DNA from: Candidatus Berkelbacteria bacterium CG06_land_8_20_14_3_00_43_10
GTDB lineage: Bacteria; Patescibacteriota; UBA1384; GWA2-35-9; CG2-30-43-20
Assembly (NCBI GenBank): GCA_002780235.1
Contig: PEVO01000026.1
Span: forward strand, 1-38,278
Reading direction: 5' to 3'
DNA: 38,278 nucleotides
The position numbers were made by a program, and so were the translations under genes. The notes below the pieces were generated by a model. The model did not search any database. It saw only the letters and a program-made list of their open reading frames with translations, and was not told the DNA's origin. This document shows, in pieces, positions 7,268 to 34,308 of this stretch (within the stretch, counting starts at the first letter, position 1; every line of letters begins with the position of its first letter).

Positions 7268-8209
7268 ATGAACACTAAACAAATTTTTACTTGCGCACTC
7301 GATATGGGAAAAGCTGCCGATCCACGCGGAAAAGCGGGGGTTGCACGGTGGTTAAAAATAATGAAACGCAACTGGGACGATGCAACGCCAGCACGCAAAA
7401 AAGAACTCGACGCCGAACGCCTTACTAACCCGTATATGGATAGTCGCATCCATTTTGACAGTGGCAAAAAGGTGACCAAAGCGCTTGTGGGTATCGATAT
7501 CGGGTCTGCGGAGATGTTGCTTGCCGATACACTCGGCGCAGATTTGGTTATTTCTCACCACCCACACGGCAATGGGCTGGCACAACTTGATGAGGTGATG
7601 CATCTGCAAGCCGATCTTTTGCACGCGACTGCCGATGTGCCCATCAACGTCGCAGAAGCGATTATCCGCACCCGTTCCCAAGAGATTGCGCGCAAATTGA
7701 GCCCTTTAAATCACCATCAAAGTGTAGACACGGCGCGCCTACTCAATATTTCGCTCATCAGCATGCACACGCCTGCCGATAATATCGTCTGGAAGCATGT
7801 GCACGATCTCCTCGCAAAAACAAAGCCCGATACGGTGGGTGATGTTGTCGACGCACTCAAAAAAATACCTGAATATCAAGAAGGTTTACGCCGTGGCGAA
7901 GGTCCTACTATTTTTGCAGGCGAACGCACCAACCGCGCAGGAAAGGTTGTTGCAAGCGAATTTACCGGCGGGACAGAGCTCGGAAAAGAGTTATATCTGC
8001 ATTTAGCACGCGCCGGTGTAGGCACCGTTGTGGGCATGCACGTTGCAGAAGACGCCCGTGTGCAAGCCCAGAAACATCATATAAACATTGTGATCGCCGG
8101 GCACATGAGCTCCGATTCGCTCGGCATGAACCCGATACTCGACGCAATCGAGTCAAAAGGAATTGAAATTATCCCGTGCTCGGGGTTGATTAGGGTCAAG
8201 CGGACATAA
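7268..8209 (+). CDS. NIF3 (DUF34/YbgI) family dinuclear-metal-centre protein
   Basis: Family motifs DLVISHHPHG near the N-terminal third and VIAGHMSSDSLG near the C-terminus. The length of 313 aa is typical for the family. Confidence 0.8.
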   Translation: MNTKQIFTCALDMGKAADPRGKAGVARWLKIMKRNWDDATPARKKELDAERLTNPYMDSRIHFDSGKKVTKALVGIDIGSAEMLLADTLGADLVISHHPHGNGLAQLDEVMHLQADLLHATADVPINVAEAIIRTRSQEIARKLSPLNHHQSVDTARLLNISLISMHTPADNIVWKHVHDLLAKTKPDTVGDVVDALKKIPEYQEGLRRGEGPTIFAGERTNRAGKVVASEFTGGTELGKELYLHLARAGVGTVVGMHVAEDARVQAQKHHINIVIAGHMSSDSLGMNPILDAIESKGIEIIPCSGLIRVKRT

Positions 8210-8214
8210 TTTCC

Positions 8215-8916
8215 ATGAACGAGACCCAACTTATTAAGAAACTTAAGAAAATAAAATCAATGGGTTTTGTAAAAACTCATAGGGCACACGATACAGGGAT
8301 CGGGAAAACGCTTGAAGACCTTCTTGGAGTTAAGGAAAATAACTTTCGATTACCCGATATTGGCACAATCGAACTTAAAGCAAAAAGGCTTGATTCTGCA
8401 AGTATGCTCACGCTTGCAACTAAATCCCCTGAACCACGTGGGGTGAACCGGATACTATTTGAAAACTACAAGTATGTAGACGAAAATAGTTGTTTCTGCT
8501 TACATTCAACAGTTTGTGGGTCAAAAGCAAACCCACAAGGTTTTAAGCTCTCTCTTGGTAATGGAAAATTGATTTTAGAAAACAAAAACAACATTAACGC
8601 GTATTGGTTACTTACCATTTTTGATACCGTTTTGCTATCTAAATCAGGTAAGATAGTGCTAGTATTCGCCGAAACAAAGGGGGACAGAAAAACTCCAAGT
8701 GAACACTTTCATTATTGCGAAGCGTATGTATTATCAGATTTAAACAAAGAAAAGTTTCATACAGCGATCAGGACTGACAAGCTTAAGGTTGATATACGCA
8801 TTGGAATGTATCGAAGCGGTAAATCGATCGGTAAATACCATGATCACGGCACGGGCTTGAGAATAGATAAGCGTAATTTCCTCGCTCTCTTTGACACATA
8901 TAGAAAACTTATCTAA
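8215..8916 (+). CDS. Type IIP restriction endonuclease, MvaI/BcnI family
   Basis: HDTGIGKTLEDLLGVKENNFRLPDIGTIELKAKR, KIVLVFAETKGDRKTPSEHFHYCEAYVL and HDHGTGLRIDKRNFLALF parallel the BcnI sequence blocks as I recall them (..LVLVFAET.G....EEQFHF..AY.L, HDRGPHLRI). The gene is AT-rich and convergent with a DNA methyltransferase. Confidence 0.75.
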   Translation: MNETQLIKKLKKIKSMGFVKTHRAHDTGIGKTLEDLLGVKENNFRLPDIGTIELKAKRLDSASMLTLATKSPEPRGVNRILFENYKYVDENSCFCLHSTVCGSKANPQGFKLSLGNGKLILENKNNINAYWLLTIFDTVLLSKSGKIVLVFAETKGDRKTPSEHFHYCEAYVLSDLNKEKFHTAIRTDKLKVDIRIGMYRSGKSIGKYHDHGTGLRIDKRNFLALFDTYRKLI

Positions 8917-8924
8917 GAGCCTGT

Positions 8925-10790
8925 TTAATCTTTTCTCAAAATTACAATACTCTCCTTATTCATAGTTTCTTCGAGTTCACCTGTAACGTTTGTTGGAGAA
9001 TTTTTAGTTGGCATTCTTTTGCCAGGAATATTCCTCACGATAATATCTTCACATACAAAACCTATATTTTCTCCTAATTCTGCGATAATGAAGTCCGTTG
9101 GTATTCTGACTTGTTTCACCTGTCTATTACCAATCACGAGGCAGAAGTAACTATTCTTTTTAAGTATTTTATAAGCATGTTTCATACAATCGTTGAGCCC
9201 GATATTAAAACTTAATACTTCCCGCGCACGTTTTTCATCTTTTAGAGCTATCTTTGATAATGCATCTGTTAAGTAGTACGATTTGAGTGGATTATCTAAC
9301 TGCGCGACTGGATGTCCTCCTAAAAGCTCATTATCAACTCCTGATGCCGTGTTTGGATCGTCAAAAATATCGACCCACTGCGCTGAAAGTCGTGAAAACT
9401 GCCCATATGCAACCGTTGTGCGACTGTCGCCATATGGTGGAGATGTGATAATGCAGTCTACTGAATCTTTTTGTATACCATTATCACCCGAGGAATCACC
9501 TAAAATTATTGTTACCTTTGTATTAGTATCAACGTTTTCAAAATATGACGTCATCCCTATAATATTTGACTCTGTTTTTTTTGTGAAAAAGCCCAGCACG
9601 TCTGGATTGTGTGTATCGAGTTTTTCTTTTTTCATTCTCACTAATTTGAACTCTCCATTTTTTGTATTTGATGAGAATCTCACTGTTTCGCTTAACCCCA
9701 CCATAAAGAAGTTCCGAACATTATTATTATCAATGCCTTGGATCGCTTTTTTTATCTTTGCGAGCATAATGATAACTTTTTCGTTAAACCAAAAATCGCA
9801 ATTGTTAAACGTTGGCTTACTGATATCTGTTTCTTTAACTCGAGATATTCGGTCAAGGAGCGAAAAATATGCCGTTCGTATCTCTCGAGGATTAATTTCT
9901 GTTGTTTTTGCGCGCGCAAGAAACAATGCGAACGGGTTAAGATCAATCCCTACTACATTCCGTCCTAAAATGCGACTCTCGACCAATGCTGTTCCTGAAC
10001 CACAGAATATGTCGCACACCGTATCTCCTTTTTTACTATACTTTTGTAACAAGCGGTTTGCGACTTGCGGAATAAACATTGCTGGATATGTATGCAAACC
10101 ATGCGTATATGATTTTGTTTTCTCCCCTCTGAAGTCCCATGAGAAATCAATACGTCTTTGATAGTGAGAATCACGTGCGATCTCCCGTTCGACAGGATAG
10201 TCAAGGCTTCGTATGATTTTTACAACAACACCTCTCACCTCAACTTCTTGTCGGTAGAGTGGAAATAGCTCTGGATTTGCTGGTTGTAGCCGTATACGAT
10301 TATTTTCTCGGTATAGCTTTTTTAAGGTTGCCTGATTGTCATCTATGATAGCGACGACCGTTTGCCCATTATGTGCATATTCTTGTTTTCTTAAAACCAC
10401 AGTATCGCCGTCAAAAATCCCTTCATCTATCATGCTATTACCAACCACTTGCAGAGCATAAAAGTTTCCGAACTTTCCTACCTCATTTCTTGATAAAGTT
10501 ATGGTTTGGTCAGGGATCTCTATAGCTTCTATCGGTTGACCTGCAGCAATGGTCCCAACGAGTGGAATCTGAATGACTTCTTTTTCTTGCGTGGTGGTAA
10601 CTCCACGTGGTTGGTTATACTCTTTAAGTAAGTAGCCCGCTTCTTGCAGTTTTTTAACATGATAATGTGCTGTTGAGACTGATGCGAGCCCAAAATGATC
10701 TTTAACTTCATCGAGTGACGGTGAATACTTTTTAGTTTTAATGAAGTTTTTAATAAACTCAAATACTTCTTTCTGCCGTTTTGAGATCAT
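8925..10790 (-). CDS. LexA repressor (wHTH + S24 autopeptidase) fused to an SPPY-type (probably N4-cytosine) DNA methyltransferase
   Basis: ORF trimmed to MISKRQKEVFEFI... (ATG 10790, AAGGAGGGGG upstream). The N-terminal ~215 aa align to LexA landmarks: the wHTH, the cleavage site VGTIAAGQP, the catalytic Ser in VVGNSMIDEGIFDGD and the Lys in ATLKKL. The C-terminal ~400 aa carry MTase motif I (DIFCGSGTALVES), then after ~180 aa motif IV (IITSPPYGDSRT). This order is alpha-like (I - TRD - IV). Confidence 0.85.
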   Translation of the reverse strand: MISKRQKEVFEFIKNFIKTKKYSPSLDEVKDHFGLASVSTAHYHVKKLQEAGYLLKEYNQPRGVTTTQEKEVIQIPLVGTIAAGQPIEAIEIPDQTITLSRNEVGKFGNFYALQVVGNSMIDEGIFDGDTVVLRKQEYAHNGQTVVAIIDDNQATLKKLYRENNRIRLQPANPELFPLYRQEVEVRGVVVKIIRSLDYPVEREIARDSHYQRRIDFSWDFRGEKTKSYTHGLHTYPAMFIPQVANRLLQKYSKKGDTVCDIFCGSGTALVESRILGRNVVGIDLNPFALFLARAKTTEINPREIRTAYFSLLDRISRVKETDISKPTFNNCDFWFNEKVIIMLAKIKKAIQGIDNNNVRNFFMVGLSETVRFSSNTKNGEFKLVRMKKEKLDTHNPDVLGFFTKKTESNIIGMTSYFENVDTNTKVTIILGDSSGDNGIQKDSVDCIITSPPYGDSRTTVAYGQFSRLSAQWVDIFDDPNTASGVDNELLGGHPVAQLDNPLKSYYLTDALSKIALKDEKRAREVLSFNIGLNDCMKHAYKILKKNSYFCLVIGNRQVKQVRIPTDFIIAELGENIGFVCEDIIVRNIPGKRMPTKNSPTNVTGELEETMNKESIVILRKD

Positions 10791-10826
10791 AGTTTCCCCC
10801 TCCTTATATCTTCTTATTATATACAT

Positions 10827-10856
10827 AGTATATCGAAAGTAAATAGAAAGTGTCAA
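10827..10856 (-). promoter_or_regulatory. promoter of the LexA-methyltransferase gene
   Basis: Minus strand TTGACA (10856-10851), N18, TATACT (10832-10827). The palindrome ATATAC-ATA-GTATAT (10819-10833) overlaps the -10. Confidence 0.55.
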
Positions 10857-10947
10857 GGGTTTGTATCCCTCTTTATTGTACCTTTCTTAGCAAACTCTCA
10901 TTGATGCTTTACGCACCTTTCATTGTGCGGTATTCTAGTAGTGGACT

Positions 10948-13778: not shown

Positions 13779-14180
13779 ATGAGCCAATACAAAGTTCCCC
13801 AAAATGTTGATATGCAAGATAAGATCGTTGGACCGCTCACAATGTTCCAATTTTTGTATCTGTTAGCCGGCGGGATGATCTTTTATTCTACATTTAAAGC
13901 AGGGCAAACTGTGTTGACGATTTTGGTCGGCATCCCCGCCGCACTTGTTGGACTCGCATTTGCCTTTGTCAAAGTTAACGACCAACCGTTTAATAAATTT
14001 GTCGTCTCGTTTGCGTTCTTTTTAACGCACCCCAAATCGCGTGTTTGGCATCAAGGCGGGAGCACACCAAGCGTGCTGGTAACACAGGACCCCAACAAAA
14101 AAGATGCGCATGTGACACCAAAGGCGCTTGATAAACAAAAGCTCGCAACCGTTGCGCGCACGCTGGACGAAGCATCATGA
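13779..14180 (+). CDS. PrgI / VirB3-like small membrane protein of a T4SS-like locus
   Basis: The N-terminus YKVPQNVDMQDKIVGPLTMFQFLYLLAGG, followed by two TM helices, matches the PrgI family pattern (from memory). The stop overlaps the next start (ATGA). Confidence 0.65.
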   Translation: MSQYKVPQNVDMQDKIVGPLTMFQFLYLLAGGMIFYSTFKAGQTVLTILVGIPAALVGLAFAFVKVNDQPFNKFVVSFAFFLTHPKSRVWHQGGSTPSVLVTQDPNKKDAHVTPKALDKQKLATVARTLDEAS

Positions 14181-15040
14181 CTAAAAAACCAACGAAACCA
14201 CAAGCGCCCTCGACACAGCAACACGTCAACGTGGTGCAAGTAAAGCAAGGGATCATTGTGACGCGTACCGGGTCGCTGCGCCAGGTGCTTAAAGTTGAAC
14301 CCGTCAACTTTGCGCTCAAATCTGACCAAGACAAAGAGGTGATGATCGGGCAATATCAAAACTTTATCAACTCGCTTACTTTTCCTATCCAAATTGTCAT
14401 TCACTCGCGCCGACTCGACGTCACGCCCTATCTGCACCGTTTATCGCAGAGGGTTGCGCAAGAGCCCAACGAACTACTCCAACTACACGCGTATGAATAT
14501 ATCGATTTTGTATCGGAACTGACATCGATGACCAATATTATGGATAAAAAGTTTTATGTTGTGGTCGGCTACGAACCACCACCGACCGCGCGTAAAGGGT
14601 TTTTGAGTAATCTGTTTGGAAAAAAGCAAGACATTATTTCATTTACGGAAACCGATTGGCAAAAACATGCAGCAGAGATGGGACAACACGTGGGCACTAT
14701 CGCCGGCGGGCTTGCAGGGCTTGGGCTCAAAGTTGACACCCTTGATACGCAAGAGGCGATCGAACTGCTCTACGGCGTATATAACCCAGAAGAGGCGACC
14801 AGCGAAAAGCTAACCGAGGTTGAGTCGATGCAGTCATCGGTCGTATCGCTCACGGCGCAAGGCGCGCCGACGCAACCAGCAGGCACACCGGTGACGACCC
14901 CGCCAGCTACTGCGCAACCCACTGGGCAAGGCGCAGGAGTACCCGTAACAGCTCCACCACAACCCGCACCACCGGCACAACCAGCGCAACCATTACCAAT
15001 AAAACAACCCCAAGGAGGGTCTGATGCCCCCAAACAGTAG
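14177..15040 (+). CDS. T4SS-associated protein resembling the extreme N-terminal domain of Gram-positive VirB4 (TrsE/PrgJ) ATPases; Pro-rich tail
   Basis: VQVKQGIIVTRTGSLRQVLKVEPVNFALKSDQDKEVMIGQYQNFINSLTFPIQIVIHSRRLD follows the pattern that opens many VirB4-type proteins (from memory). The C-terminal ~60 aa are P/A/Q/T-rich. It overlaps the VirB4 ORF by 17 nt. Confidence 0.6.
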   Translation: MTKKPTKPQAPSTQQHVNVVQVKQGIIVTRTGSLRQVLKVEPVNFALKSDQDKEVMIGQYQNFINSLTFPIQIVIHSRRLDVTPYLHRLSQRVAQEPNELLQLHAYEYIDFVSELTSMTNIMDKKFYVVVGYEPPPTARKGFLSNLFGKKQDIISFTETDWQKHAAEMGQHVGTIAGGLAGLGLKVDTLDTQEAIELLYGVYNPEEATSEKLTEVESMQSSVVSLTAQGAPTQPAGTPVTTPPATAQPTGQGAGVPVTAPPQPAPPAQPAQPLPIKQPQGGSDAPKQ

Positions 15041-17012
15041 CACGCCTCCACCAGCACAAAGCCCACTCTCGCCAACGCAACCCACCGTTGCGCCTATTAC
15101 GGGTGCGTCACCTCCAAAAGTGCAGGCACCACTTGCAAGCATACCGTTAATGCAACGTCCTTTACCCGGTGTTGCGCATACCGATAGCAAAAAACAACCA
15201 TCCGCCACCGATGCGATGACAAAAAAAATGTTAGAAGGGCGCACGGGGCTTTTAGATATCATTGCCCCTGCAGCGTTTGTGGTCACCCCCAACTTTTTAC
15301 AGCTCAACAACACCTATCTTAAATCGTTCTTTGTCTATACTTACCCACGGTTTTTAAACACCAACTGGCTGTCACCCGTTATCAACTTTGATATGACCAT
15401 AGATATCACCATGTTTGTCTACCCCATCGCAACCAACGAGGTGATGAGTCAACTGCGCCGCAGACAATCACAGCTCGAATCGACCAATATGATGCAACAA
15501 GAAAAGGGGATGGTGCGCGATCCAGAACTGCAAACCGCGATAGAAGATATCGATTCGATGCGCGATGCGCTCCAAAAAGGCGAGTCGCGGTTGTTCCAAT
15601 TTTCGCTCTACTTTATCTTATACGCAACCACGCATGAAGAGCTTGCGACGCTCACCCATACGCTCGAATCGGCTCTGGGCGGGATGCTCATTTACACCAA
15701 ACAATCATTTTTGCAGATGGAACAAGGGTTTAATTCCACGCTCCCGCTTGGCACCGACGAGTTGCGCATTATGCGCAACATGGACACGGGGTCGCTGTCG
15801 ACAACGTTCCCGTTTACATCGGCTACGCTATCGAGTAACGAAGGGATACTCTACGGGATCAATCGTCATAATTCATCGCTTATTCTCTTTGATCGGTTTA
15901 AACTAGAAAACGCAAATACCGTTGTGTTTGCACGCTCTGGTGCAGGTAAATCGTATACCGTTAAGCTAGAAGCGATCCGCTATTTGATGGTGGGCACCGA
16001 TATTATTGTCATCGACCCAGAAAATGAATACGAAAAATTAGCTGAAGCGCTCGGCGGGAGTTTTATCCCCATCTCGCTTAACTCCGATAAGCGCATCAAC
16101 CCGTTTGACCTACCGCCCGTGCCAGAAGGGGAAGACGGCGAAACGGTGTTGCGCAGCAATATCGCCATGGCGACCGGTTTAATTGCACTGATGGTCGGCA
16201 CGATTACGCCAGAAGAATCGGGGCTCATCGACAAGGCGCTCTACCAAACATATGCGCTCAAAGACATCACCACCGACCCGGCAACGTTTTCTAACCCCCC
16301 ACCGCTGTTGCAAGATTTTGTCGGCGTGTTGCGCAATATGTCGGGCACCGAGTCGCTGACCCAACGGCTCAACAAATATATCGATGGGTCGTTTGCGGGG
16401 CTGTTTACCCAACCGACTAACATTGATTTGGGGCGGGGGCTGATCGCCTTTTCTATCCGCGATTTAGAAGAACAGTTGCGCCCCATCGGAATGTATCTTA
16501 TCTTGACCTATATTTGGAACAAAGTCCGCCACAAACTGCGTAGGCGCATACTGATTCTCGATGAGGCGTGGATTTTGATGCAACACGAAGACAGTGCGCG
16601 GTTTGTCAACGCGCTGGTTAAACGCGCTCGTAAGTATTATTTGGGCGTTACGGTGATATCGCAAGATGTAGAAGACTTTCTTGGCTCGCAGTATGGGCGG
16701 TCGATATTAAACAACGCATCTATGCAGATTTTACTTAAGCAATCTACCACGACGGTAGAAAAGTTAGCGGAAGCGTTTAAACTAACGGACGGGGAAAAGT
16801 TTCTCCTGCTGGAATCGGGTGTGGGAGAGGGTCTGTTCTTTGCAGGGCAAAACCATGTGGCGATAAAGATTGTCGCAAGTTATACAGAAGATCAGATTAT
16901 CACCACTAACCCACAACAGCTACTCGCGCTCAAAGAGGCGGCAAAGGTGCAGCTTGCAGCACGTAATTCTGCTCCCCAACCTGCTCCCCAGAACATGCCG
17001 GAGAAGAGTTAG
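15024..17012 (+). CDS. virB4: VirB4/TrsE-type T4SS ATPase
   Basis: Walker A VVFARSGAGKSYT, Walker B RRILILDEAWILM, downstream VTVISQDVEDF, and the N-terminal block DIIAPAAFVVTPNFLQLNNTYLKSFFVYTYPRFLNTNWL typical of VirB4. AAGGAGGG lies 5 nt before the ATG. Confidence 0.9.
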   Translation: MPPNSSTPPPAQSPLSPTQPTVAPITGASPPKVQAPLASIPLMQRPLPGVAHTDSKKQPSATDAMTKKMLEGRTGLLDIIAPAAFVVTPNFLQLNNTYLKSFFVYTYPRFLNTNWLSPVINFDMTIDITMFVYPIATNEVMSQLRRRQSQLESTNMMQQEKGMVRDPELQTAIEDIDSMRDALQKGESRLFQFSLYFILYATTHEELATLTHTLESALGGMLIYTKQSFLQMEQGFNSTLPLGTDELRIMRNMDTGSLSTTFPFTSATLSSNEGILYGINRHNSSLILFDRFKLENANTVVFARSGAGKSYTVKLEAIRYLMVGTDIIVIDPENEYEKLAEALGGSFIPISLNSDKRINPFDLPPVPEGEDGETVLRSNIAMATGLIALMVGTITPEESGLIDKALYQTYALKDITTDPATFSNPPPLLQDFVGVLRNMSGTESLTQRLNKYIDGSFAGLFTQPTNIDLGRGLIAFSIRDLEEQLRPIGMYLILTYIWNKVRHKLRRRILILDEAWILMQHEDSARFVNALVKRARKYYLGVTVISQDVEDFLGSQYGRSILNNASMQILLKQSTTTVEKLAEAFKLTDGEKFLLLESGVGEGLFFAGQNHVAIKIVASYTEDQIITTNPQQLLALKEAAKVQLAARNSAPQPAPQNMPEKS

Positions 17013-17035
17013 GGGGATTAGGGGGATTAGGGGGA
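17009..17035 (+). repeat. tandem repeat (TTAGGGGGA)x3
   Basis: Three perfect 9-bp units. The first contains the VirB4 stop codon (17010-17012). A further GGGG run lies at 17046-17049. Confidence 0.85.
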
Positions 17036-17053
17036 ATTTGAAAATGGGGAAAT

Positions 17054-18328
17054 ATGGAAGATAAACAAAAAAACACCCTCCTTGTTGGTCTCGTTATTGC
17101 GATCGTGATCTTTTTGTTTCTCCTGCCCATTATGATCATTGCATTTGCGACATTCGGTAAAGGGCAAGGGGAGTTGGGGGATAGCGGAGTTCCTGGATTA
17201 GGAAACTCCGGAACAACTGGTCAAATTACAAGTACTGTGATCTCCTGCATAATTGATAAAGGGAATGGCAAGCTTAATTCCGCTACGGTTGCTAGTTTGC
17301 AAACGAAGCAGCCCGTATATGAAGCTGGTGCGGCTCAAGCAGGTATTCCGTGGGATGTGCTTGCTGCACTTCATATGCGTGAGACTGGGTTAAACGCATC
17401 GGGGGACAATCCATTCCAAATAACAGGATATCATGGCACGTTTTCAGCCAATGCTGCAGCTACCGCGGCAAAGTTTCTTGTTCACAAAGGAAAATCTGTT
17501 TACGGTGTCGATATTAGCAAAAATCCTTCTGATGAAAATATCCAACTTGCATATTTGGCATACAATCGGGGCTCAAGCTATAAGTCAAAAGGGCTTACTC
17601 CAAATGACTCTCCATATGTTTTTAATTTTTATGACTCAGCGCATCAAAATATGAAATGGCCACCCGGAGATATCGGAAGCGTCGGCGGTGTGAGTATCGC
17701 GGGAAAAGTTGATCGCAATCTAGGCGCATTTACATTTCTCTCTATTATGCGTAGTTGTGGTGGTACTGCTCCTCCGTCAAATATTCAAGGTACGGTATTG
17801 CCCCTCAAACAAGCTGAAATGAAAAATACTTTTAATTCGACTCTCCATAATTGCTCAATTAGTTCGCCACCAGGATGTAGTGATGGGGGGCACCGTCCAG
17901 TTCTTGGATCACTCAATTCACTCGGGACAAATATTCCTACAAAACGGAGTAGTGGTGAAGCGTCAGACGTTATGACTATACATGGCGCTACGGTATACGC
18001 ACCATTTAGTGGTACAATTACCTATAATGGACATGTCAGTAGAAGTGATGCGTCGATGGGGCAGATGTTGACAGTTCAGTCCACCGATGGTAGAATGACT
18101 GCAGCGCTACTCCACCTTAACAAATCCGGTATCATCGCAAAGAAGACAGTAAAAGCCGGGGAGCCGGTTGGAACGGTCATCACTATGATTAGTAGTCGCG
18201 GTAACGATATCACACATCTTCACTTTGAGTTATGGATAGACGGAAAGGCTATCAACGCCGGTGGTCCAGGATCAGGTGTAAGTGGGGGGAAAGTCTGGAA
18301 AGCGCAAAAACATGCGCTAGGTTATTAA
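17054..18328 (+). CDS. membrane-anchored peptidoglycan hydrolase-like protein with C-terminal M23/LytM-like domain
   Basis: The N-terminal TM is LLVGLVIAIVIFLFLLPIMIIAF. The central block GIPWDVLAALHMRETGLNASGDNPFQITGY is transglycosylase-like (weak call). The C-terminus has ATVYAPFSGTITY...GQMLTVQSTDGRMTAALLHL...VKAGEPVGTV...ITHLHFELWIDGKAIN, the M23 pattern. The first HxxxD metal motif is not evident. Confidence 0.75.
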   Translation: MEDKQKNTLLVGLVIAIVIFLFLLPIMIIAFATFGKGQGELGDSGVPGLGNSGTTGQITSTVISCIIDKGNGKLNSATVASLQTKQPVYEAGAAQAGIPWDVLAALHMRETGLNASGDNPFQITGYHGTFSANAAATAAKFLVHKGKSVYGVDISKNPSDENIQLAYLAYNRGSSYKSKGLTPNDSPYVFNFYDSAHQNMKWPPGDIGSVGGVSIAGKVDRNLGAFTFLSIMRSCGGTAPPSNIQGTVLPLKQAEMKNTFNSTLHNCSISSPPGCSDGGHRPVLGSLNSLGTNIPTKRSSGEASDVMTIHGATVYAPFSGTITYNGHVSRSDASMGQMLTVQSTDGRMTAALLHLNKSGIIAKKTVKAGEPVGTVITMISSRGNDITHLHFELWIDGKAINAGGPGSGVSGGKVWKAQKHALGY

Positions 18329-28738: not shown

Positions 28739-29785
28739 TTAGTTTAGTTCTATAGTATATGGATTAAGTGCTGCGAGTTTTGTAGGGAGCGACGTCGATG
28801 TAACTATTGTCTGTTGTTTGGAAAAAAGTGTCAAAAGAGTATCTTGGCGTTTGTGATCGAGTTCAGAAAAGACATCGTCAAGAAGTAAAATCGGTGTATC
28901 ATCGCCATCTGTTAATATATGCACCTCTGCTTTTTTTATTGCAAGCACAGCAAGCCGCCGTTCGCCACGCGACCCATAGTCTGCAAGTGAGCGACCATCA
29001 AGCGTAATTATACAGTCATCCCTGTGTGGACCGATATTTGTCGCACGGATACGTAGATCTTGATTGCGTGATCGCACAAGGAGTGTTTTTGATATATCAC
29101 TTGGACAATATGTAATTGTGAGTTTTCTTGGATCTCCTGTCAGGTCGCTATATTCACGCGCAATATGGGTTTGAAGTGTCGCGCAAAGGTGAGCACGTTC
29201 TTTTTGAATGATTTGAGAAACATCACACAACTGCGCATCCCACACACTCAATTCGTCTTCTTGCGCAAACCCCTGCGCCATACGCTCCAGTGTTGCATTG
29301 CGCCTACGCAGTATACGGCGCATATCAAGGAGTGCCCGCACATAGACTTTTGATTGCTGACCGATGCATTGATCTAAAAACTGTCGCCGGTGTTGCGGTG
29401 GTCCGTTGATAAAATCAAGATCATCAAGTGCGAATATCACCGTTTTAATGCTTCCGATAATGTGCGAAAACGGGTGCTTTACACCGTTTAGTGTTATCTG
29501 TTTTTTGTCATGGGTAAGCGCACACGTGATATAGGTAACCCCGCCGCTCCCTGCGACAGTTGCAATAATACGCGCTGCGGGCGCATCAAAAGTAATAACC
29601 TCTCTGTCTCGATGCGCTCTAAAACTCTTTCCCAGCGATAAAAAACGAATCGCTTCTATTATATTTGTTTTGCCGACACCGTTATCGCCAAGCAATACCG
29701 TGATCGGTTCAAAAACGATTGTTTTATGTGTATGATTTCTAAAATTTTCGAGGGTAAGTTCTGTAAGAGAACTCATATGTCTCAA
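28739..29785 (-). CDS. recF: DNA replication and repair protein RecF
   Basis: LENFRNHTHKTIVFEPITVLLGDNGVGKTNIIEAIRFLSLGKSFRA (Walker A) and C-terminal GERRLAVLAIKKAE...LLLDDVFSELD. It overlaps dnaN by 4 nt. Confidence 0.95.
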   Translation of the reverse strand: MRHMSSLTELTLENFRNHTHKTIVFEPITVLLGDNGVGKTNIIEAIRFLSLGKSFRAHRDREVITFDAPAARIIATVAGSGGVTYITCALTHDKKQITLNGVKHPFSHIIGSIKTVIFALDDLDFINGPPQHRRQFLDQCIGQQSKVYVRALLDMRRILRRRNATLERMAQGFAQEDELSVWDAQLCDVSQIIQKERAHLCATLQTHIAREYSDLTGDPRKLTITYCPSDISKTLLVRSRNQDLRIRATNIGPHRDDCIITLDGRSLADYGSRGERRLAVLAIKKAEVHILTDGDDTPILLLDDVFSELDHKRQDTLLTLFSKQQTIVTSTSLPTKLAALNPYTIELN

Positions 29786-30888
29786 TCGTCGAGTTTAAGG
29801 GGCATAACAAGGGTTCTGTAATCGACCCGTGATGAAGGGATGAGCATAAGAGGGGATACCTTTCCCGCACATTTAATGGTCACACTATCCCCGGGCATCA
29901 CCGCTAATATATCCAGTATAAACTTAGCATTACACGCTATTTCTAATGTTTCTCCTGTTGTTGTGCCTTCGACCGTATTAGATGTATCACCCATATTTGC
30001 CGATGTTGCAGAAATGGTGGTGGGGCTGTCGGGGATAAAGACGATACGAATATTATGTGATATATCGCGCGAAAAACTACTCGCTAATTTAAGGGCTGAT
30101 TGGAGAGCGCCGATAGAAACCTGCGCTGTGGTTGTTGCCTTTTTAGGTATAATCTGCTCGTAATCAGGGTATGTCCCCTCAAGAATACGCGAGATAAGTG
30201 TGCAGTTGCCAAACGAAAAACTTACCTGTGTTTGGGCGATGGTGAGCGTTACACTCTCGAGCGAGAGCTCTAACAGTCGCCCTACCTCTGAAAGTGTGCG
30301 CGCAGGAATAATACATGACACATCTTTTGGAGCGGGTTTCATAAGGGGGATCGTCCGTTCTGCAAGCCGGTAACTATCCGTTGCAACAAGAGTAAGTGTT
30401 GACCCATGAATAACACACAAAACTCCCGTTAATACGGGGCGGGTTTCATCAAGCGCGGTGGCAAAAACAACTTGATTAATCACTTCTTTTAAATCACTTG
30501 GTTTTATTTGATACGACTCGTCACTTGTCACATCGGGAATTAATGGGAAATCTTCTGCGTCAAGCCCGTGTAAGTGCGCGGTGACATGGTCGCTCTTCGC
30601 AGTTATTTGTGTGTTTTCTACTAAGAGATTGATCGTTTTATCCTGATTTGACGATACAAAATCAGCAAGAAGCCGTGCGGGGACCGTAATCGACCCTTCT
30701 TTTTCTACTTTTGCGCCGATAAAAACAACAAGCGCGATCTCAAGATCGGTCCCTGCTATTTTGAGCCGACCTTTATCCGTCGACAACAGCATATTAGAGA
30801 GTATAGGGAGTGTCGACCGAACACCCACAATACGACTCACCGCAGAAACCCCTTTTGCTAAATTTTCTTGCATACATGATATGTGCAT
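29782..30888 (-). CDS. dnaN: DNA polymerase III beta sliding clamp
   Basis: The N-terminus ...QENLAKGVSAVSRIVGVRSTLPILSNMLLSTDKGRLKIAGTDLEIAL and the C-terminus ...SPLMLIP....YRTLVMPLKL are typical DnaN. Synteny is dnaA-dnaN-recF. Confidence 0.95.
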   Translation of the reverse strand: MHISCMQENLAKGVSAVSRIVGVRSTLPILSNMLLSTDKGRLKIAGTDLEIALVVFIGAKVEKEGSITVPARLLADFVSSNQDKTINLLVENTQITAKSDHVTAHLHGLDAEDFPLIPDVTSDESYQIKPSDLKEVINQVVFATALDETRPVLTGVLCVIHGSTLTLVATDSYRLAERTIPLMKPAPKDVSCIIPARTLSEVGRLLELSLESVTLTIAQTQVSFSFGNCTLISRILEGTYPDYEQIIPKKATTTAQVSIGALQSALKLASSFSRDISHNIRIVFIPDSPTTISATSANMGDTSNTVEGTTTGETLEIACNAKFILDILAVMPGDSVTIKCAGKVSPLMLIPSSRVDYRTLVMPLKLDD

Positions 30889-31164
30889 ATATTTTTTCCT
30901 TTCTTGTTCCTTTATTATTTTATTTCTATATTATCCACACCATCGCCTCTTTCCTCTTTAATTATCTATATATAAAGAAAGAAAGAGTAGTAGTAGTAAG
31001 GACTGTGAATATGTGAATAAACTGGTGTGTGTGGTGTGGATTTCTTGAGGAAAACCTGTGTGTTGGGGTGGATAGTCTGTGTATAAAAATACGTCCATAT
31101 TATATTACCGCGCGTTATCCACATTCTTTCCACAACTTATCCACATGTTTTCCACAAGCACCGG
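30889..31164. promoter_or_regulatory. dnaA-dnaN intergenic oriC segment: phased DnaA boxes, trio-like repeats, AT-rich tract
   Basis: Four direct boxes at exact 11-bp spacing: TTATCCACA 31115, cTtTCCACA 31126, TTATCCACA 31137 and TTtTCCACA 31148. Opposite-orientation box-like sites: TGTGaATAt 31004, TGTGaATAA 31012, TGTGGATtt 31035 and gGTGGATAg 31067. There is also TTATCCACA at 30931, TAGTAGTAGTAA at 30988-30999, and AT-rich sequence from 30889 to 30985. Confidence 0.65.
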
Positions 31165-32550
31165 TTATTTAGCGTAAAGTATCGTTCGGATACTCCCCAA
31201 CTCTTCGCGCAACTCATCATCGCGCCCCAACTCTTTTTCTATCACGCCAGATCCATGCATAATAGTGGTGTGATCTTTTCCCCCAAGCGCATCACCAATC
31301 TGGGGAAAAGACATCCCACACTCTAGGCGCATAAGATACATAAGGATATGGCGGGGGTGGACAAAGCGGCGATTGCGCTGTTTCCCCATAATCTCTTCTT
31401 TTGTGATGGAAAAATGACGCGTAACAATATCAATAAGTTTATCCGGCGTTGTCGCACCTTTCTTTGCACCTGCGCCTAATTGGTCTTTGAGCGCCGCGCG
31501 TGCAAGGTCGAGTGTTGGTTGTTCACCTTGGAGTTGGCAGTATGCGATAACTTTATTGAGCGCTCCTTCTAGTTCGCGGATGTTACTCATAAAACTTTCC
31601 GCGATGAAAGAGAGAACATCGGGATCTATATCCATACCCGCCCGTGTTGCCTTTTCTTGCACAATAGCGAGGCGCGTTTCGAGGTCGGGGGGTTGAATAT
31701 CAGCGACCATCCCCATCCCAAACCTACTTGAAAGACGACCCTCAAGATCAGGGATAGCGGTGGGGATGCGGTCAGAGGTCATCACAATCTGTCGATCGTT
31801 TTGATGAAGCGCGTTAAAAGTGTGGAAGAACTCTTCTTGCGTCCCTTCTTTGCGTGAGAGAAATTGTATATCATCAACCAAAAAAACATCTATCGAACGG
31901 TATTTTTTCTTAAATGATTCAGATTTTTTGCTTTGTATCGATTGCACAAAATCGTTCGCAAAATCCTCGCACGATGTATACAGGAGCTTAAGTTTTGGAT
32001 TGTGCGCAAGCAGAGTGTTCCCAATAGCATGGATAAGGTGGGTTTTGCCGAGCCCCACACCACCGTAGACAACAAGGGGGTTATGCATCTTCCCCGGCGT
32101 TTGCGCAACCGCTTGACATGCGGCGTAGGCAAGCCGGTTGTTTGACCCAACAATAAAGCTGTCAAATGTATATTCGGGTCGGAGGCGCAGGGTCGTCATG
32201 GTGTTTGGCGGTGTCAGATCGATAGACGCCTGTGCGTTTTGAGAAACAGGAGACGGCGCGTGCGTCGTTGGTTGAGGGGTGGTAGTGTGCGCGCGTGGCA
32301 GTGGCGCACCGATCATATAGGTGATATGAGTGACGGCGCCATCGGTGAGTTTTTTGAGCGTTTTGAGGATCTCTTGGTCGTAGCGCTTTTCAAACCATTT
32401 TTTGACAAATGCACTCGGCACAGAGATAACTGCCTGTGGCGGTTGAATATCAACAAGTCTAGTTCCCCGAAACCAGGTGGTGTAGTTTGCTTTGGAGAGT
32501 GCGACTTCTAGCTCTCCTAACGCGGCTTGCCAGATATCATCGAGTTCCAT
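31165..32550 (-). CDS. dnaA: chromosomal replication initiator DnaA
   Basis: Walker A VVYGGVGLGKTHL, Walker B VFLVDDIQFL, sensor and box VII blocks (SDRIP..L..RL.SRF..G), and the C-terminal DNA-binding helix HTTIMHG. AGGAGA SD. Confidence 0.97.
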   Translation of the reverse strand: MELDDIWQAALGELEVALSKANYTTWFRGTRLVDIQPPQAVISVPSAFVKKWFEKRYDQEILKTLKKLTDGAVTHITYMIGAPLPRAHTTTPQPTTHAPSPVSQNAQASIDLTPPNTMTTLRLRPEYTFDSFIVGSNNRLAYAACQAVAQTPGKMHNPLVVYGGVGLGKTHLIHAIGNTLLAHNPKLKLLYTSCEDFANDFVQSIQSKKSESFKKKYRSIDVFLVDDIQFLSRKEGTQEEFFHTFNALHQNDRQIVMTSDRIPTAIPDLEGRLSSRFGMGMVADIQPPDLETRLAIVQEKATRAGMDIDPDVLSFIAESFMSNIRELEGALNKVIAYCQLQGEQPTLDLARAALKDQLGAGAKKGATTPDKLIDIVTRHFSITKEEIMGKQRNRRFVHPRHILMYLMRLECGMSFPQIGDALGGKDHTTIMHGSGVIEKELGRDDELREELGSIRTILYAK

Positions 32551-32712
32551 TTTTCTCCTATCGCCATCCTAGCACATCGAGTTATCCACAGTTAATGGTA
32601 TGGCTGTGGATAATTGTAGCACAAACTGTTAAGACTGTGGATAAGTGGGGTGGACACATATTTTCGCTTTACATATATATATATATAAGATACACTATCC
32701 ACAGGAGATCGC
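32551..32712. promoter_or_regulatory. rpmH/dnaA intergenic region with DnaA boxes and (AT)n tract (second oriC segment / dnaA autoregulatory region)
   Basis: TTATCCACA 32582-32590, TGTGGATAA 32605-32613, TGTGGATAA 32636-32644 and cTATCCACA 32695-32703. There is an alternating AT run at 32673-32687. Confidence 0.65.
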
Positions 32713-32850
32713 ATGAAACGGACATTCCAAGGCAACAATACAAAAAAGAAAAATGATCACGGCTTTCTCAAAAAGATGACAACAGAAGGTGGACGCGCAA
32801 CGCTTAAGCGCCGGCGCGCACGTGGTCGTGCACGCCTCACAACAGTGTAG
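32713..32850 (+). CDS. rpmH: 50S ribosomal protein L34
   Basis: Not in the ORF track (45 aa). My translation is [45 protein letters not shown], the classic L34 pattern. AGGAGA SD at 32703-32708. The position between dnaA and rnpA is canonical. Confidence 0.9.
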
Positions 32851-32858
32851 GCGGTTGC

Positions 32859-33176
32859 ATGATCCCTCGCTCACACCGCCTCCCTGCCAAGCAGATTGTT
32901 AAATTAGTGCGGAGCGCCCACCGGCACCATAGCCCATCTCTGGTGCTTTTTTGGCGCACATCGACCTACCCGCAGACACGGATCGCAATAATGGTATCGC
33001 GCAAAGTAAACACGCGGGCAACGGTGCGCAATCTCATGCGGCGGCGCGTTGCGCAGATATGCATGACGAATACGCAGAAAATAGGGTCGCGCGACGTTAT
33101 TATATCGGTCAAAAAACAAGCGACCCAAGAGATATATGAAAAAGAGATACTCCAATGGCTCGGCGCATCGCGTTAG
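32859..33176 (+). CDS. rnpA: ribonuclease P protein component
   Basis: A 105-aa basic protein (RIAIMVSRKVNTRATVRNLMRRRV) immediately downstream of rpmH. Confidence 0.85.
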   Translation: MIPRSHRLPAKQIVKLVRSAHRHHSPSLVLFWRTSTYPQTRIAIMVSRKVNTRATVRNLMRRRVAQICMTNTQKIGSRDVIISVKKQATQEIYEKEILQWLGASR

Positions 33177-33391
33177 CAAGTATACGTCTGTATCAAAAAA
33201 CCCTGTCACCCGATCATGGATGGTTTAAACACAGATATTCGGCAGGGTATTGTAAGTATGAGCCGACGTGTTCCGAGTATACCTATCAAGCGATCAAAAG
33301 ATATGGTATTATAAAGGGCGCTGTCAAGGGCGCACACCGAATAGTGCGGTGCAACCCATGGAGTAAGGGGGGAGAAGATCCTGTGAAGTAA
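33155..33391 (+). CDS. yidD: membrane protein insertion efficiency factor YidD
   Basis: IRLYQKTLSP....CKYEPTCSEYTYQAIKRYGIIKGAVKGAHRIVRCNPWSKGGEDPV is the YidD signature. It overlaps the end of rnpA. Confidence 0.9.
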   Translation: MARRIALASIRLYQKTLSPDHGWFKHRYSAGYCKYEPTCSEYTYQAIKRYGIIKGAVKGAHRIVRCNPWSKGGEDPVK

Positions 33392-33474
33392 AAAGTCACA
33401 AAGTTCATAAAGTCTAAAACGGATTCCATGGTTTTCACTTTACAAACTTTATAGACTTTCGACTTTATAGACTA
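33392..33474. repeat. iteron-like palindromic intergenic element, copy B
   Basis: The core GGATTCCATGGTTTTCACTTTA (33421-33442) is identical to 13720-13741. It is flanked by AAAGTC-type units on the left (33392-33414) and ACTTTACAAACTTT / ATAGACTTT units on the right (33437-33474). Confidence 0.7.
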
Positions 33475-33480
33475 ATAATC

Positions 33481-34308
33481 ATGAAAGAATTTTTTAAAAT
33501 CATTCTCTACAAACCACTCTACAACATCTTAATGGTGCTTATTTTACTGACCCCACAACACTCACTTGCGGTCGGTGTGGTTGCTTTGACTGTTCTTATC
33601 CGCATTGCGTTGCTACCTGCAACAAAATCGATAACCCGCCAGCAAGCGCTGATGGCAAAGGTCAAACCAGAACTCGATGAACTGCAAAAGAAGCATAAAG
33701 GTGACCAGGCAACGCTCGCGCGCGAAACGATGGCGTTTTACAAAAGGCACCACGTGAGTCCGTGGGGGTCATGTCTGCCGATGATCTTACAGTTGGTTAT
33801 TCTTATTATCCTTTATCGAGTATTTATCGCTGGCGTTGCGACGGTGCGCACCGATCTGCTCTACTCATTTATTCCCAACCCCGGCACCATCAACCCATTC
33901 TTCTTTGGTATTGATCTATCCAAGCCTGATCTGTGGATATTACCGGTCATTACGGGTTTGTTGCAGTTTGTGCAGACATGGCAGATGATGCCAAAAAGTA
34001 AAAAAGGGACAACAAACGCAAACGATCCGTCTGCCATGATACAAAAGCAGATGGTGTATGTGTTGCCAGTCTTTACTGTGGTCATCGCGCGCAGTTTCCC
34101 TGCAGCGCTGCCACTGTATTGGGCGATATCAAGTGTTATCTCTATCATCCAACAAACCTATATCTTGCGCGCAACGGCAAAAATTAGTCTTAAACAAGCA
34201 GATGCGTTGCTGGGAAGTGGCGCCGATGATGTGACGGTAACCGAAACCAAAGAAGTTATTACTAAAAAAGATGTCGAAATAACAGTGCGTAAAAAGAAAA
34301 GCGAATAG
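33481..34308 (+). CDS. yidC: membrane protein insertase YidC (short, Gram-positive/Oxa1-like form)
   Basis: YKPLYNILMVL...LTVLIRIALLPATKSITRQQALMAKVKPELDELQKKHKGDQATLARETMAFYKRHHVSPWGSCLPMILQL are the conserved YidC/Oxa1 blocks. Synteny with yidD. Confidence 0.9.
   Translation: MKEFFKIILYKPLYNILMVLILLTPQHSLAVGVVALTVLIRIALLPATKSITRQQALMAKVKPELDELQKKHKGDQATLARETMAFYKRHHVSPWGSCLPMILQLVILIILYRVFIAGVATVRTDLLYSFIPNPGTINPFFFGIDLSKPDLWILPVITGLLQFVQTWQMMPKSKKGTTNANDPSAMIQKQMVYVLPVFTVVIARSFPAALPLYWAISSVISIIQQTYILRATAKISLKQADALLGSGADDVTVTETKEVITKKDVEITVRKKKSE

Follow-up and report, generated by a model that had tools for sequence, protein, structure and literature searches.

A complete LexA repressor fused to the methyltransferase of an MvaI/BcnI-type restriction–modification system: architecture, distribution and predicted self-regulation in Patescibacteria

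Introduction

Restriction–modification (R-M) systems must balance a toxic endonuclease (R) against a protective methylase (M). Known controls of this balance are controller (C) proteins, short helix-turn-helix (HTH) extensions of the methylase, promoter methylation and antisense RNA, none of which senses DNA damage. Here, we describe a locus on contig PEVO01000026.1 (assembly GCA_002780235.1) of Candidatus Berkelbacteria bacterium CG06_land_8_20_14_3_00_43_10, a stretch of 38,278 nucleotides hereafter referred to as the window. A single gene of this window encodes a LexA repressor fused in frame to a Type II DNA methyltransferase, and it converges with a gene for an endonuclease of the MvaI/BcnI family. 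The architecture of the fusion, its predicted operator and its relatives were compared in order to interpret how such a system may be regulated.

Homologs of the fusion were drawn from a 5.8-billion-protein collection (NCBI, JGI, ENA and Logan assemblies), from which the best 120 clusters were compared. In a collection holding one genome per species, at least 503 candidate stretches encode a relative, some of which may match one part of the protein only; comparisons between loci use the best 80 of these stretches (L001–L080; 56–82% identity). The taxonomy of the loci is given by the labels of metagenome-assembled genomes (MAGs), and binning makes these labels uncertain. The LexA part was additionally searched against 1.84 billion representatives, and 55 long ones were chosen by length from the best 150.

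Architecture of the fusion protein

The reading frame of the fusion runs from an ATG at position 10790 to a stop codon at 8925–8927, with no internal stop or frameshift. The ATG is assigned as the start because a ribosome-binding site (AGGAGGGGG) lies 6 nt 5' of it and because it is the equivalent of the start methionine in all homologs; for the same reasons, the TTG at 10856 with which the listed open reading frame begins (8925..10856, minus strand) is an unlikely start.

Profile searches divide the protein into two parts. In Pfam, residues 3–63 match LexA_DNA_bind (PF01726, 8.6e-14), residues 76–190 match the full Peptidase_S24 profile (PF00717, 1.2e-26), and the remainder matches N6_N4_Mtase (PF01555, 2.6e-20) in two permuted stretches. 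The NCBIfam equivalog TIGR00498 (lexA) scores 176 bits against a cut-off of 111, with residues 2–196 covering positions 4–202 of its 203, and the PADLOC model for Type II methyltransferases (MTase_II, PDLC03322) matches residues 215–620 over positions 22–442 of 446 (4.7e-129). The initial annotation had recognized every LexA landmark in order, followed by a DNA methyltransferase with FCGSGT and then SPPY motifs, and these profiles bear it out; the translation contains VGTIAAGQP, GNSM, ATLKKL, FCGSGT and SPPY. A HMMER alignment to E. coli LexA (7b5g) places A83-G84, S119 and K157 of the fusion on E. coli A84-G85, S119 and K156, which also answers the call for a proper alignment of the catalytic serine and lysine. 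Sequence and profile comparison thus confirm that residues 1–196 correspond to a full LexA and residues ~215–620 to a full Type II methyltransferase, predicted to form one protein.

Structural comparison recovered the LexA part and was of no help for the methylase. The AlphaFold model was of moderate quality (mean pLDDT 75.5), and Foldseek searches with it returned LexA crystal and cryo-EM structures as the best matches (3k2z, 3jso, 1jhh, 8trg). For the methylase half, Foldseek matches were confined to distantly similar Rossmann methyltransferases (Trm11 and PNMT among them), and sequence comparison with solved structures gave only motif-I-level matches to beta-class N4/N6 enzymes. Motif I precedes motif IV with ~185 residues between them, and both FCGSGT and SPPY are invariant in alignments of 51 and 60 fusions.

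The residues predicted to carry out self-cleavage are strongly conserved. Of 181 distinct fusion sequences, 180 have Gly84, Ser119 and Lys157 and the remaining one is gapped there; Ala83 does not vary in either the 51- or the 60-sequence alignment. Across the 181 sequences, S24 is the most conserved segment of the fusion, with a mean column conservation of 0.856 compared with 0.733 for the HTH.

The endonuclease partner and the R-M island

The convergent neighbor, which to the initial annotation looked like an MvaI/BcnI-family endonuclease, is confirmed as a member of that family. It matches PF15515 (MvaI_BcnI) at 3.4e-41, its nearest solved structures are R.MvaI (2oa9, 1.7e-30) and then R.BcnI (2odh, 8.6e-20), and its catalytic PD...ExK motif (LPDIGTIELK) is aligned. 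The two genes lie tail to tail with 8 nt between their stop codons, and no terminator was found between them. The R gene starts 5 nt past a NIF3-like host gene, and neither a C (controller) or XRE reading frame nor an operator was found 5' of it in the window.

The pair occupies an island with a GC content of ~0.38, compared with ~0.50 in the flanking host genes, and is best explained as a Type II R-M system, MvaI/BcnI in type, that was acquired by horizontal transfer. With an invariant SPPY motif in M and an R closest to MvaI, N4-methylcytosine (m4C) as the product and CCWGG or CCSGG as the recognition sequence are plausible. Observed-to-expected word counts in the window are 0.52 for CCWGG and 0.71 for CCSGG, with the control word GCWGC likewise low at 0.65. 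The histories of M and R differ: M of the window is 80–82% identical to M of L001–L004, the R genes of which are only ~40% identical to that of the window, and the loci with R genes 65–71% identical to R of the window have an M that is 64–71% identical (loci compared: L001–L004 and L047). Judged by these identities, two R subtypes have evidently been exchanged among very similar M genes. The coordinates of the features are collected in Table 1.

Table 1 Features of the R-M locus and other genes in the window
Feature	Position	Strand	Basis
LexA-methyltransferase fusion gene (621 aa + stop)	8925..10790	-	Open reading frame, profiles, >180 distinct full-length homologs
Winged-helix LexA DNA-binding domain, residues 1–65	10596..10790	-	PF01726; recognition helix S39-T-A-H-Y43-H-V
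Codons of the predicted Ala83-Gly84 self-cleavage site (..GTIAA/GQP..)	10539..10544	-	Alignment to E. coli LexA
Peptidase S24 domain (LexA C-terminal, dimerization/catalytic), residues 76–196	10203..10565	-	PF00717, alignment, Foldseek
Ser119 codon	10434-10436	-	Aligned to E. coli S119
Lys157 codon	10320-10322	-	Aligned to E. coli K156
Type II DNA methyltransferase, residues ~205–621	8928..10178	-	PADLOC, PF01555, invariant motifs
Methyltransferase motif I FCGSGT (residues 262–267)	9990-10007	-	Sequence
Methyltransferase motif IV SPPY (residues 450–453)	9432-9443	-	Sequence
Fusion gene promoter	10827..10856	-	-35 TTGACA (10856-10851), 18-nt spacer, -10 TATACT (10832-10827)
Predicted LexA operator TTTCTAT (10849-10843) + TTTCGAT (10838-10832)	10832..10849	-	Direct repeat TTTCTAT-N4-TTTCGAT, 11-bp period
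Restriction endonuclease gene, MvaI/BcnI family (233 aa)	8215..8916	+	PF15515, R.MvaI/R.BcnI alignment, PADLOC REase_II
Low-GC island with the R-M pair	8210..10900	.	Composition profile; between NIF3-like and ClpB-like genes (Pfam)
recF-like gene	28739..29785	-	
dnaN	29782..30888	-	
dnaA	31165..32550	-	
yidC	33481..34308	+	

Distribution of the fusion

The best 120 homolog clusters all encode proteins of 619–633 residues with 100% query coverage, 67–83% identity and the same three Pfam domains. Their source names are either "transcriptional repressor LexA" or "cytosine-N4-specific methyltransferase", and the organisms include Patescibacteria, Gribaldobacteria, Howlettbacteria and Paceibacterota. 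In total, more than 180 distinct full-length homologs were collected (56–83% identity), mostly from Patescibacteria MAGs, and Saccharibacteria-labeled MAGs are among the sources of the best ones. Most of the best 80 loci bear labels of the candidate phyla radiation (CPR), with a minority assigned to Omnitrophota, WOR-3, Elusimicrobia, Bdellovibrio-like and other bacteria. The fusion, which had been thought unusual, is instead widespread in the CPR and one of a class of LexA-methyltransferase fusions.

These data also dispose of the suggestion that lexA and a methyltransferase gene were joined by an assembly error or a frameshift, which the initial annotation had proposed to look for near 10140–10200. 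The sole ground for it is the general expectation that some MAG contigs are chimeras, whereas a continuous frame of 619–633 residues recurs in the best 120 clusters and in the 80 loci, from independent assemblies; where it is interrupted in the loci, it is cut by a contig end or a run of N. We regard an artefact as refuted, with next to no probability left to it, and the in-frame fusion as genuine.

The fusion is nearly always accompanied by a convergent endonuclease gene of this type. An MvaI/BcnI-type gene adjoins M in all 65 loci with an R homolog starting near its N-terminus; it is convergent with M within 2–50 nt in 62 of them, lies ~780 nt away in L068, and is on the strand of M in L062 and L080, 17 and 28 nt 3' of M, respectively. 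The fusion is absent from the 72,556 plasmid and 50,697 phage records searched. Plasmids do carry unfused methyltransferases that are 35–45% identical to the methylase part, and on one Lactococcus plasmid an unfused methylase is accompanied by an HTH gene and a convergent endonuclease of the MvaI/BcnI type.

A phage origin of the fusion was considered and found to be unsupported, as none of these phage records contains it and the matches in three IMG/VR contigs are confined to the LexA part: in two of them a stand-alone LexA is 56% identical to it, and the third is a weak S24-only match. The stand-alone LexA in question (L081, positions 1–600, and L082) comprises 199 residues, belongs to the same clade, has an STVHEH helix and lies at the contig end; it may be the repressor of a CPR phage.

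Promoter and predicted operator

The promoter of the fusion gene is the best sigma-70-type match between positions 7900 and 11100 (11 of 12 positions), and related loci show the same layout. A direct repeat fills its spacer and touches the -10 element, and this repeat is the predicted LexA operator. The pattern TTC(TA/GA/GG)-N6-TTC(TA/GA/GG) occurs once in the window, at the fusion promoter. In the window and the 80 loci together (773 kb), it occurs 106 times compared with ~16 in shuffles; 75 of the 106 matches lie at most 150 nt upstream of a fusion gene, spread over 65 loci, and another 30 comprise promoters of further LexA genes and a number of matches near chance. The period of 11 bp is kept almost without exception. 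Some relatives have a second, inverted half-site pair 3' of the -10, or that pair alone, and all positions seen are compatible with repression. A palindrome overlapping the -10 (ATATAC-TAT-GTATAT, 10830–10816) was also tried as an operator and rejected, as it is conserved in no relative.

The operator search bears on whether the fusion could act beyond its own gene, either as the master SOS repressor of the cell or through a LexA domain that delivers methylation to LexA boxes genome-wide, the latter akin to the tethering of the methylase raised as an alternative by the initial annotation. In keeping with a master repressor, NCBI labels the protein "transcriptional repressor LexA" and the window holds no other lexA. 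The single operator in 38 kb, however, lies at the promoter of the fusion itself, and recF, dnaA and dnaN of the window have no matching one. No further operator emerged beyond chance in the flanks of the 80 loci, and no host SOS gene under a fusion-type operator was found there; in the CPR locus L040, recA is situated 3.7 kb away from the fusion and has no matching box. Furthermore, the gene sits in a low-GC island with M and R shuffled among relatives, four loci (L024, L032, L038 and L071) have two LexA modules each, and stand-alone LexAs exist in the CPR. A genome-wide role of either kind therefore appears highly improbable, and tethering to LexA boxes finds no match in a window with one operator.

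Two further features of these promoters were noted. The mRNA of the fusion in the window would have a 36-nt leader with a strong ribosome-binding site. In L011-type loci (e.g., L011, L017 and L027), the ATG lies ~6–8 nt past a -10 TATAAT without a ribosome-binding site, which implies a leaderless mRNA. In addition, an exact DnaA-box 9-mer (TGTGGATAA) adjoins the -35 in 35 of 77 upstream regions, and a further 16 have it with a single mismatch, compared with chance expectations of 0.1 exact and 2.75 one-mismatch occurrences. Of 48 exact DnaA boxes in 735 kb of loci, 35 are at the fusion promoter. The box lies just upstream of the -35 in, for example, L011, L017 and L028, and likewise at the second LexA fusion of L024 and the free LexA of L071; the window promoter (10857–10900) lacks one. 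This placement suggests a replication-linked input to methylase expression in the relatives concerned.

Co-variation of recognition helix and operator

The half-site varies among loci, and both copies within a locus change together, tracking the recognition helix. In the numbering of the window protein (S39-T-A-H-Y43-H), Y, H or F at position 43 pairs with TTC(T/G)A half-sites, E or Q with TTCGG (12 of 12), and K with TTCGC. Among the relatives with both an upstream region and a full-length protein, L062 and L080 are the most distant; their helix is E. coli-like (TAVxDH), and a canonical SOS box, CTGT-N8-ACAG, occupies the same promoter position. L078, with its gene truncated by the contig end, shares this box. 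These three fusions (L062, 3701–6287; L080, 6001–8595; and L078) are the most divergent of the set, with 56–63% identity, and come from WOR-3, Elusimicrobia and an unclassified MAG. The specificity of E. coli-type LexA for CTGT-N8-ACAG is established experimentally, and this helix and box pair therefore serves as an independent calibration. We conclude that the direct repeat is, by all indications of sequence, the LexA box of the fusion, and that lexA was apparently captured together with its self-regulated promoter.

A wider class of LexA-methyltransferase fusions

The nearest ~40 clusters to the LexA part (46–64% identity) are nearly all 270–890 residues long; ordinary LexAs of 200 residues begin at ~46% identity, and the short entries at the top are contig-end fragments. 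All 55 long representatives carry LexA_DNA_bind and Peptidase_S24, and their methyltransferase matches, which may overlap, are to N6_N4_Mtase (31), Eco57I (7), D12 (5), N6_Mtase (5) and C5 (3). As judged from these profiles, LexA is fused to at least five methyltransferase families. G84, S119 and K157 are invariant in these 55 distant fusions and A83 nearly so, and the named members among the long representatives are Patescibacteria.

A neighbor-joining tree built from 138 LexA domains places all 52 fused domains in a single clade, which has 66 leaves. The closest non-fused relatives are the stand-alone chromosomal lexA genes of Dojkabacteria (CPR), with 43–46% identity, the promoters of which contain TTCGG-N6-TTCGG between -35 and -10, for example TTTGATcTTTCGGCttgaATTCGGTATACT. 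According to PMC7739468, LexA evolved direct-repeat motifs several times, a statement with the Patescibacteria study among its three references.

Several loci combine the MvaI/BcnI-associated fusion with a further LexA module, in each case with a direct-repeat operator in its promoter. L024 encodes a LexA joined to a beta-class N6/N4 methyltransferase with a convergent TaqI-like endonuclease, L032 a LexA joined to a D12 methyltransferase with a convergent EcoRV-like endonuclease, and L038 a LexA joined to a C5 methyltransferase. L071 has a free LexA of 196 residues 4 nt 5' of a C5/Eco57I-type double methyltransferase. The operators of the two modules differ in L024 and L038 and are similar in L032 and L071, and insulation between co-resident LexA systems is thus possible, though not general.

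Controller genes and genomic surroundings

Some relatives add a C gene. By a strict pattern, 24 of 65 loci contain a 73-residue HTH_3 gene 1–2 nt 5' of R, and the number rises to ~35 of 65 when visual inspection adds the variant motifs ..SE.GERR.. and ..IERG.RN.. to the count. These C genes (L007, L017, L020, L042 and ~30 more) are preceded by repeated GGAATAT/TATTCCA boxes. The C-protein loop and the LexA-methylase loop of such relatives are, as predicted from their sequences, two independent loops.

In L019, L021, L029, L060 and L071, the island meets, on its R side, the 3' terminus of a tRNA gene (..GGTTCAAATCC..CGCCA), which suggests tRNA-adjacent insertion in these genomes. In the window, the chromosomal origin region lies at 28739–34308, ~20 kb away from the R-M island, and six exact DnaA boxes (TTATCCACA/TGTGGATAA) flank dnaA, at 30931, 31115, 31137, 32582, 32605 and 32636. 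A type IV secretion-like cluster at 13779–18328 includes Pfam matches to the PrgI family, a VirB4/TraG-type P-loop ATPase and an M23 peptidase. Taken with the Saccharibacteria labels of the best fusion homologs, this cluster is suggestive of a host resembling Saccharibacteria.

Proposed mechanism and its alternatives

We think it probable that a methylase bearing an N-terminal LexA represses its own gene, that RecA-stimulated cleavage releases this repression, and that DNA damage thereby shifts the system towards protection. The LexA part would dimerize through its S24 domain, and the fusion would bind TTTCTAT-N4-TTTCGAT between its own -35 and -10, holding the methylase at a low set level. 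Cleavage between Ala83 and Gly84 would be set off by RecA filaments on damaged DNA, which includes DNA that the endonuclease of the system has itself cut where methylation is incomplete. The DNA-binding domain would thus be set free, the promoter de-repressed and methylase output raised. Because the genes converge 8 nt apart without a terminator, stronger transcription of M may also run antisense into R and lower endonuclease synthesis. The net effect would be a damage-triggered shift to protection, a Type II counterpart of restriction alleviation that acts as a homeostat against autoimmunity.

Within this proposal, self-repression by the fusion protein is most likely, as in methyltransferases with an N-terminal HTH, and we infer that the protein binds DNA, that its cleavage depends on RecA and that the physiological effect runs towards protection. 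Control coupled to RecA fits because the cleavage residues G84, S119, K157 and A83 are conserved and a LexA-type operator lies in the promoter of M.

A simpler reading would take the LexA module as a borrowed dimeric autorepressor and nothing more. It would set the level of M and allow the full rate of M synthesis in a new, repressor-free cell ahead of R, with no cleavage under physiological conditions. Autorepression of a methyltransferase through an N-terminal HTH is an established form of R-M control (PMC3874152), the same role is played by C proteins and N-terminal HTHs in other systems, and in roughly half of the relatives a C gene of its own, with C-boxes, precedes R, which is a classical establishment circuit. 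A plain autorepressor, however, would have no use for a cleavage site and a catalytic dyad, yet G84 and the dyad are retained throughout the 181 homologs, apart from the gapped one, and in the 55 fusions with other families, A83 is invariant or nearly so, and S24 is the best-conserved segment of all. We therefore hold this reading to be unlikely.

The consequence of cleavage might also be the reverse, namely damage-triggered loss of protection: cleavage would mark the methylase for degradation, and persistent SOS induction, for example by a phage, would let R kill the cell in a form of abortive infection or addiction. After cleavage, the N-terminal fragment would end in an exposed ..IAA, which we take to resemble the ..VAA signal for ClpX in E. 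coli. Moreover, R-M systems do act as addiction modules (PMC3874152). On the other hand, the repressor would leave its own promoter upon cleavage, so that synthesis of new methylase should rise; the methylase would stay on the S24 fragment, away from the exposed ..IAA end; and the data give no sign of instability. Loss of protection is accordingly rated as quite improbable.

Several points weigh against the damage-triggered shift to protection that we favor. LexA dimers normally bind palindromes, and binding to direct repeats rests on the report of Sanchez-Osuna 2017 as it is cited by others. The correlation between helix and operator may partly reflect linkage or shared ancestry in a few clades, as the promoter lies next to the N-terminal codons and the two are inherited together. 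Degradation of both fragments follows LexA cleavage in E. coli; should the S24-methylase fragment share this fate, methylation might respond in the opposite way. Neither recA nor a separate lexA lies within the 38-kb window, while one fusion-bearing CPR contig (L040) does have recA. More methylase during phage-induced SOS would help the phage, and the benefit is thus not self-evident. Finally, R lies behind M and the LexA box in L062 and L080, and SOS would raise both enzymes if the two genes were co-transcribed.

Tentatively, and with some doubt, we extend the proposal to an undescribed, large regulatory class of R-M systems in the CPR. In this class, lexA and its promoter would have been captured by at least five methyltransferase families and the operators diversified (TTCTA, TTCGA, TTCGG, TTCGC and CTGT-N8-ACAG); damage feedback sensed through RecA would adjust methylation, and the DnaA box would add a replication-linked input in most relatives.

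If the proposed mechanism is correct, a Type II system reads DNA breaks directly, those of its own autoimmunity included, whereas damage-linked restriction alleviation has so far been known for Type I enzymes only. CPR bacteria largely lack clustered regularly interspaced short palindromic repeat (CRISPR) systems and rely on R-M. With the fusion present in many species-level genomes and dozens of other LexA-methyltransferase families beside it, this may be a main principle of defense regulation in a large part of the bacterial tree. In practical terms, the annotation "transcriptional repressor LexA" can mislead the reconstruction of SOS regulons, and the pairs of helix and operator offer a naturally occurring set of LexA specificities with which changes in the DNA code of a repressor can be studied.

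Comparison with known systems

The closest regulatory parallel is offered by methyltransferases of the M.SsoII, M.Ecl18kI, M.EcoRII and M.MspI type, which likewise carry an N-terminal DNA-binding domain and have an operator overlapping the M promoter (PMC3874152). In both cases, the concentration of the enzyme would be sensed directly by its own gene. In place of the short HTH of the M.SsoII type, however, the fusion has a whole LexA of ~200 residues, with a winged HTH and a predicted self-cleaving S24 domain, and a signal input, RecA on damaged DNA, would therefore be added. Furthermore, the divergent R and M genes of the M.SsoII type share a control region in which binding by M stimulates R, an arrangement absent from the window, where R and M converge.

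Convergent M and (C-)R units with independent loops are known from AhdI and PvuII (PMC2275141, PMC2175313), with two independent regulatory loops described for AhdI (PMC2275141), and the relatives with a C gene resemble them, as does the unfused relative on the Lactococcus plasmid. Unlike AhdI and PvuII, the window has no C gene, and M would be controlled by the fused LexA rather than by C or promoter methylation. The LexA of Patescibacteria with a direct-repeat box (Sanchez-Osuna et al. 2017, as cited) appears, from what is cited of it, to share the domain set, the catalytic residues and a box in its own promoter. The fusion differs in being joined to an enzyme, in apparently controlling its own promoter only and in residing on a mobile R-M island, and the helix STAHYH and half-sites TTCTA/TTCGA of the window class have diverged. 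As for the proposed outcome, the restriction alleviation of the Type I enzyme EcoKI is the same, with unmodified self-DNA protected during damage and repair (PMC11109961). EcoKI alleviation is ClpXP-dependent and proceeds by proteolysis of the restriction subunit (PMC11109961), a wholly different mechanism from that proposed here, in which self-cleavage would take place in a repressor joined to the methylase.

A natural LexA-methyltransferase fusion is not described in the full-text literature searched, although the 2017 paper on SOS in Patescibacteria lay outside its reach and may contain prior notice, and the 2013 review of R-M regulation includes no such mechanism (PMC3874152). With MvaI and BcnI themselves (2oa9, 2odh), the system shares the endonuclease family and the aligned catalytic motif, and SPPY is typical of N4-cytosine enzymes. 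The unfused plasmid relatives of the methylase are, unlike the fusion, devoid of LexA. To our knowledge, the characterized MvaI/BcnI methyltransferases carry no LexA either. Thus, the MvaI/BcnI pair and self-repression by a methylase-borne DNA-binding domain are known, whereas what is new is that this domain is a full, predicted self-cleaving SOS repressor with a CPR-type box, recurring on what its profiles indicate to be many methyltransferase families.

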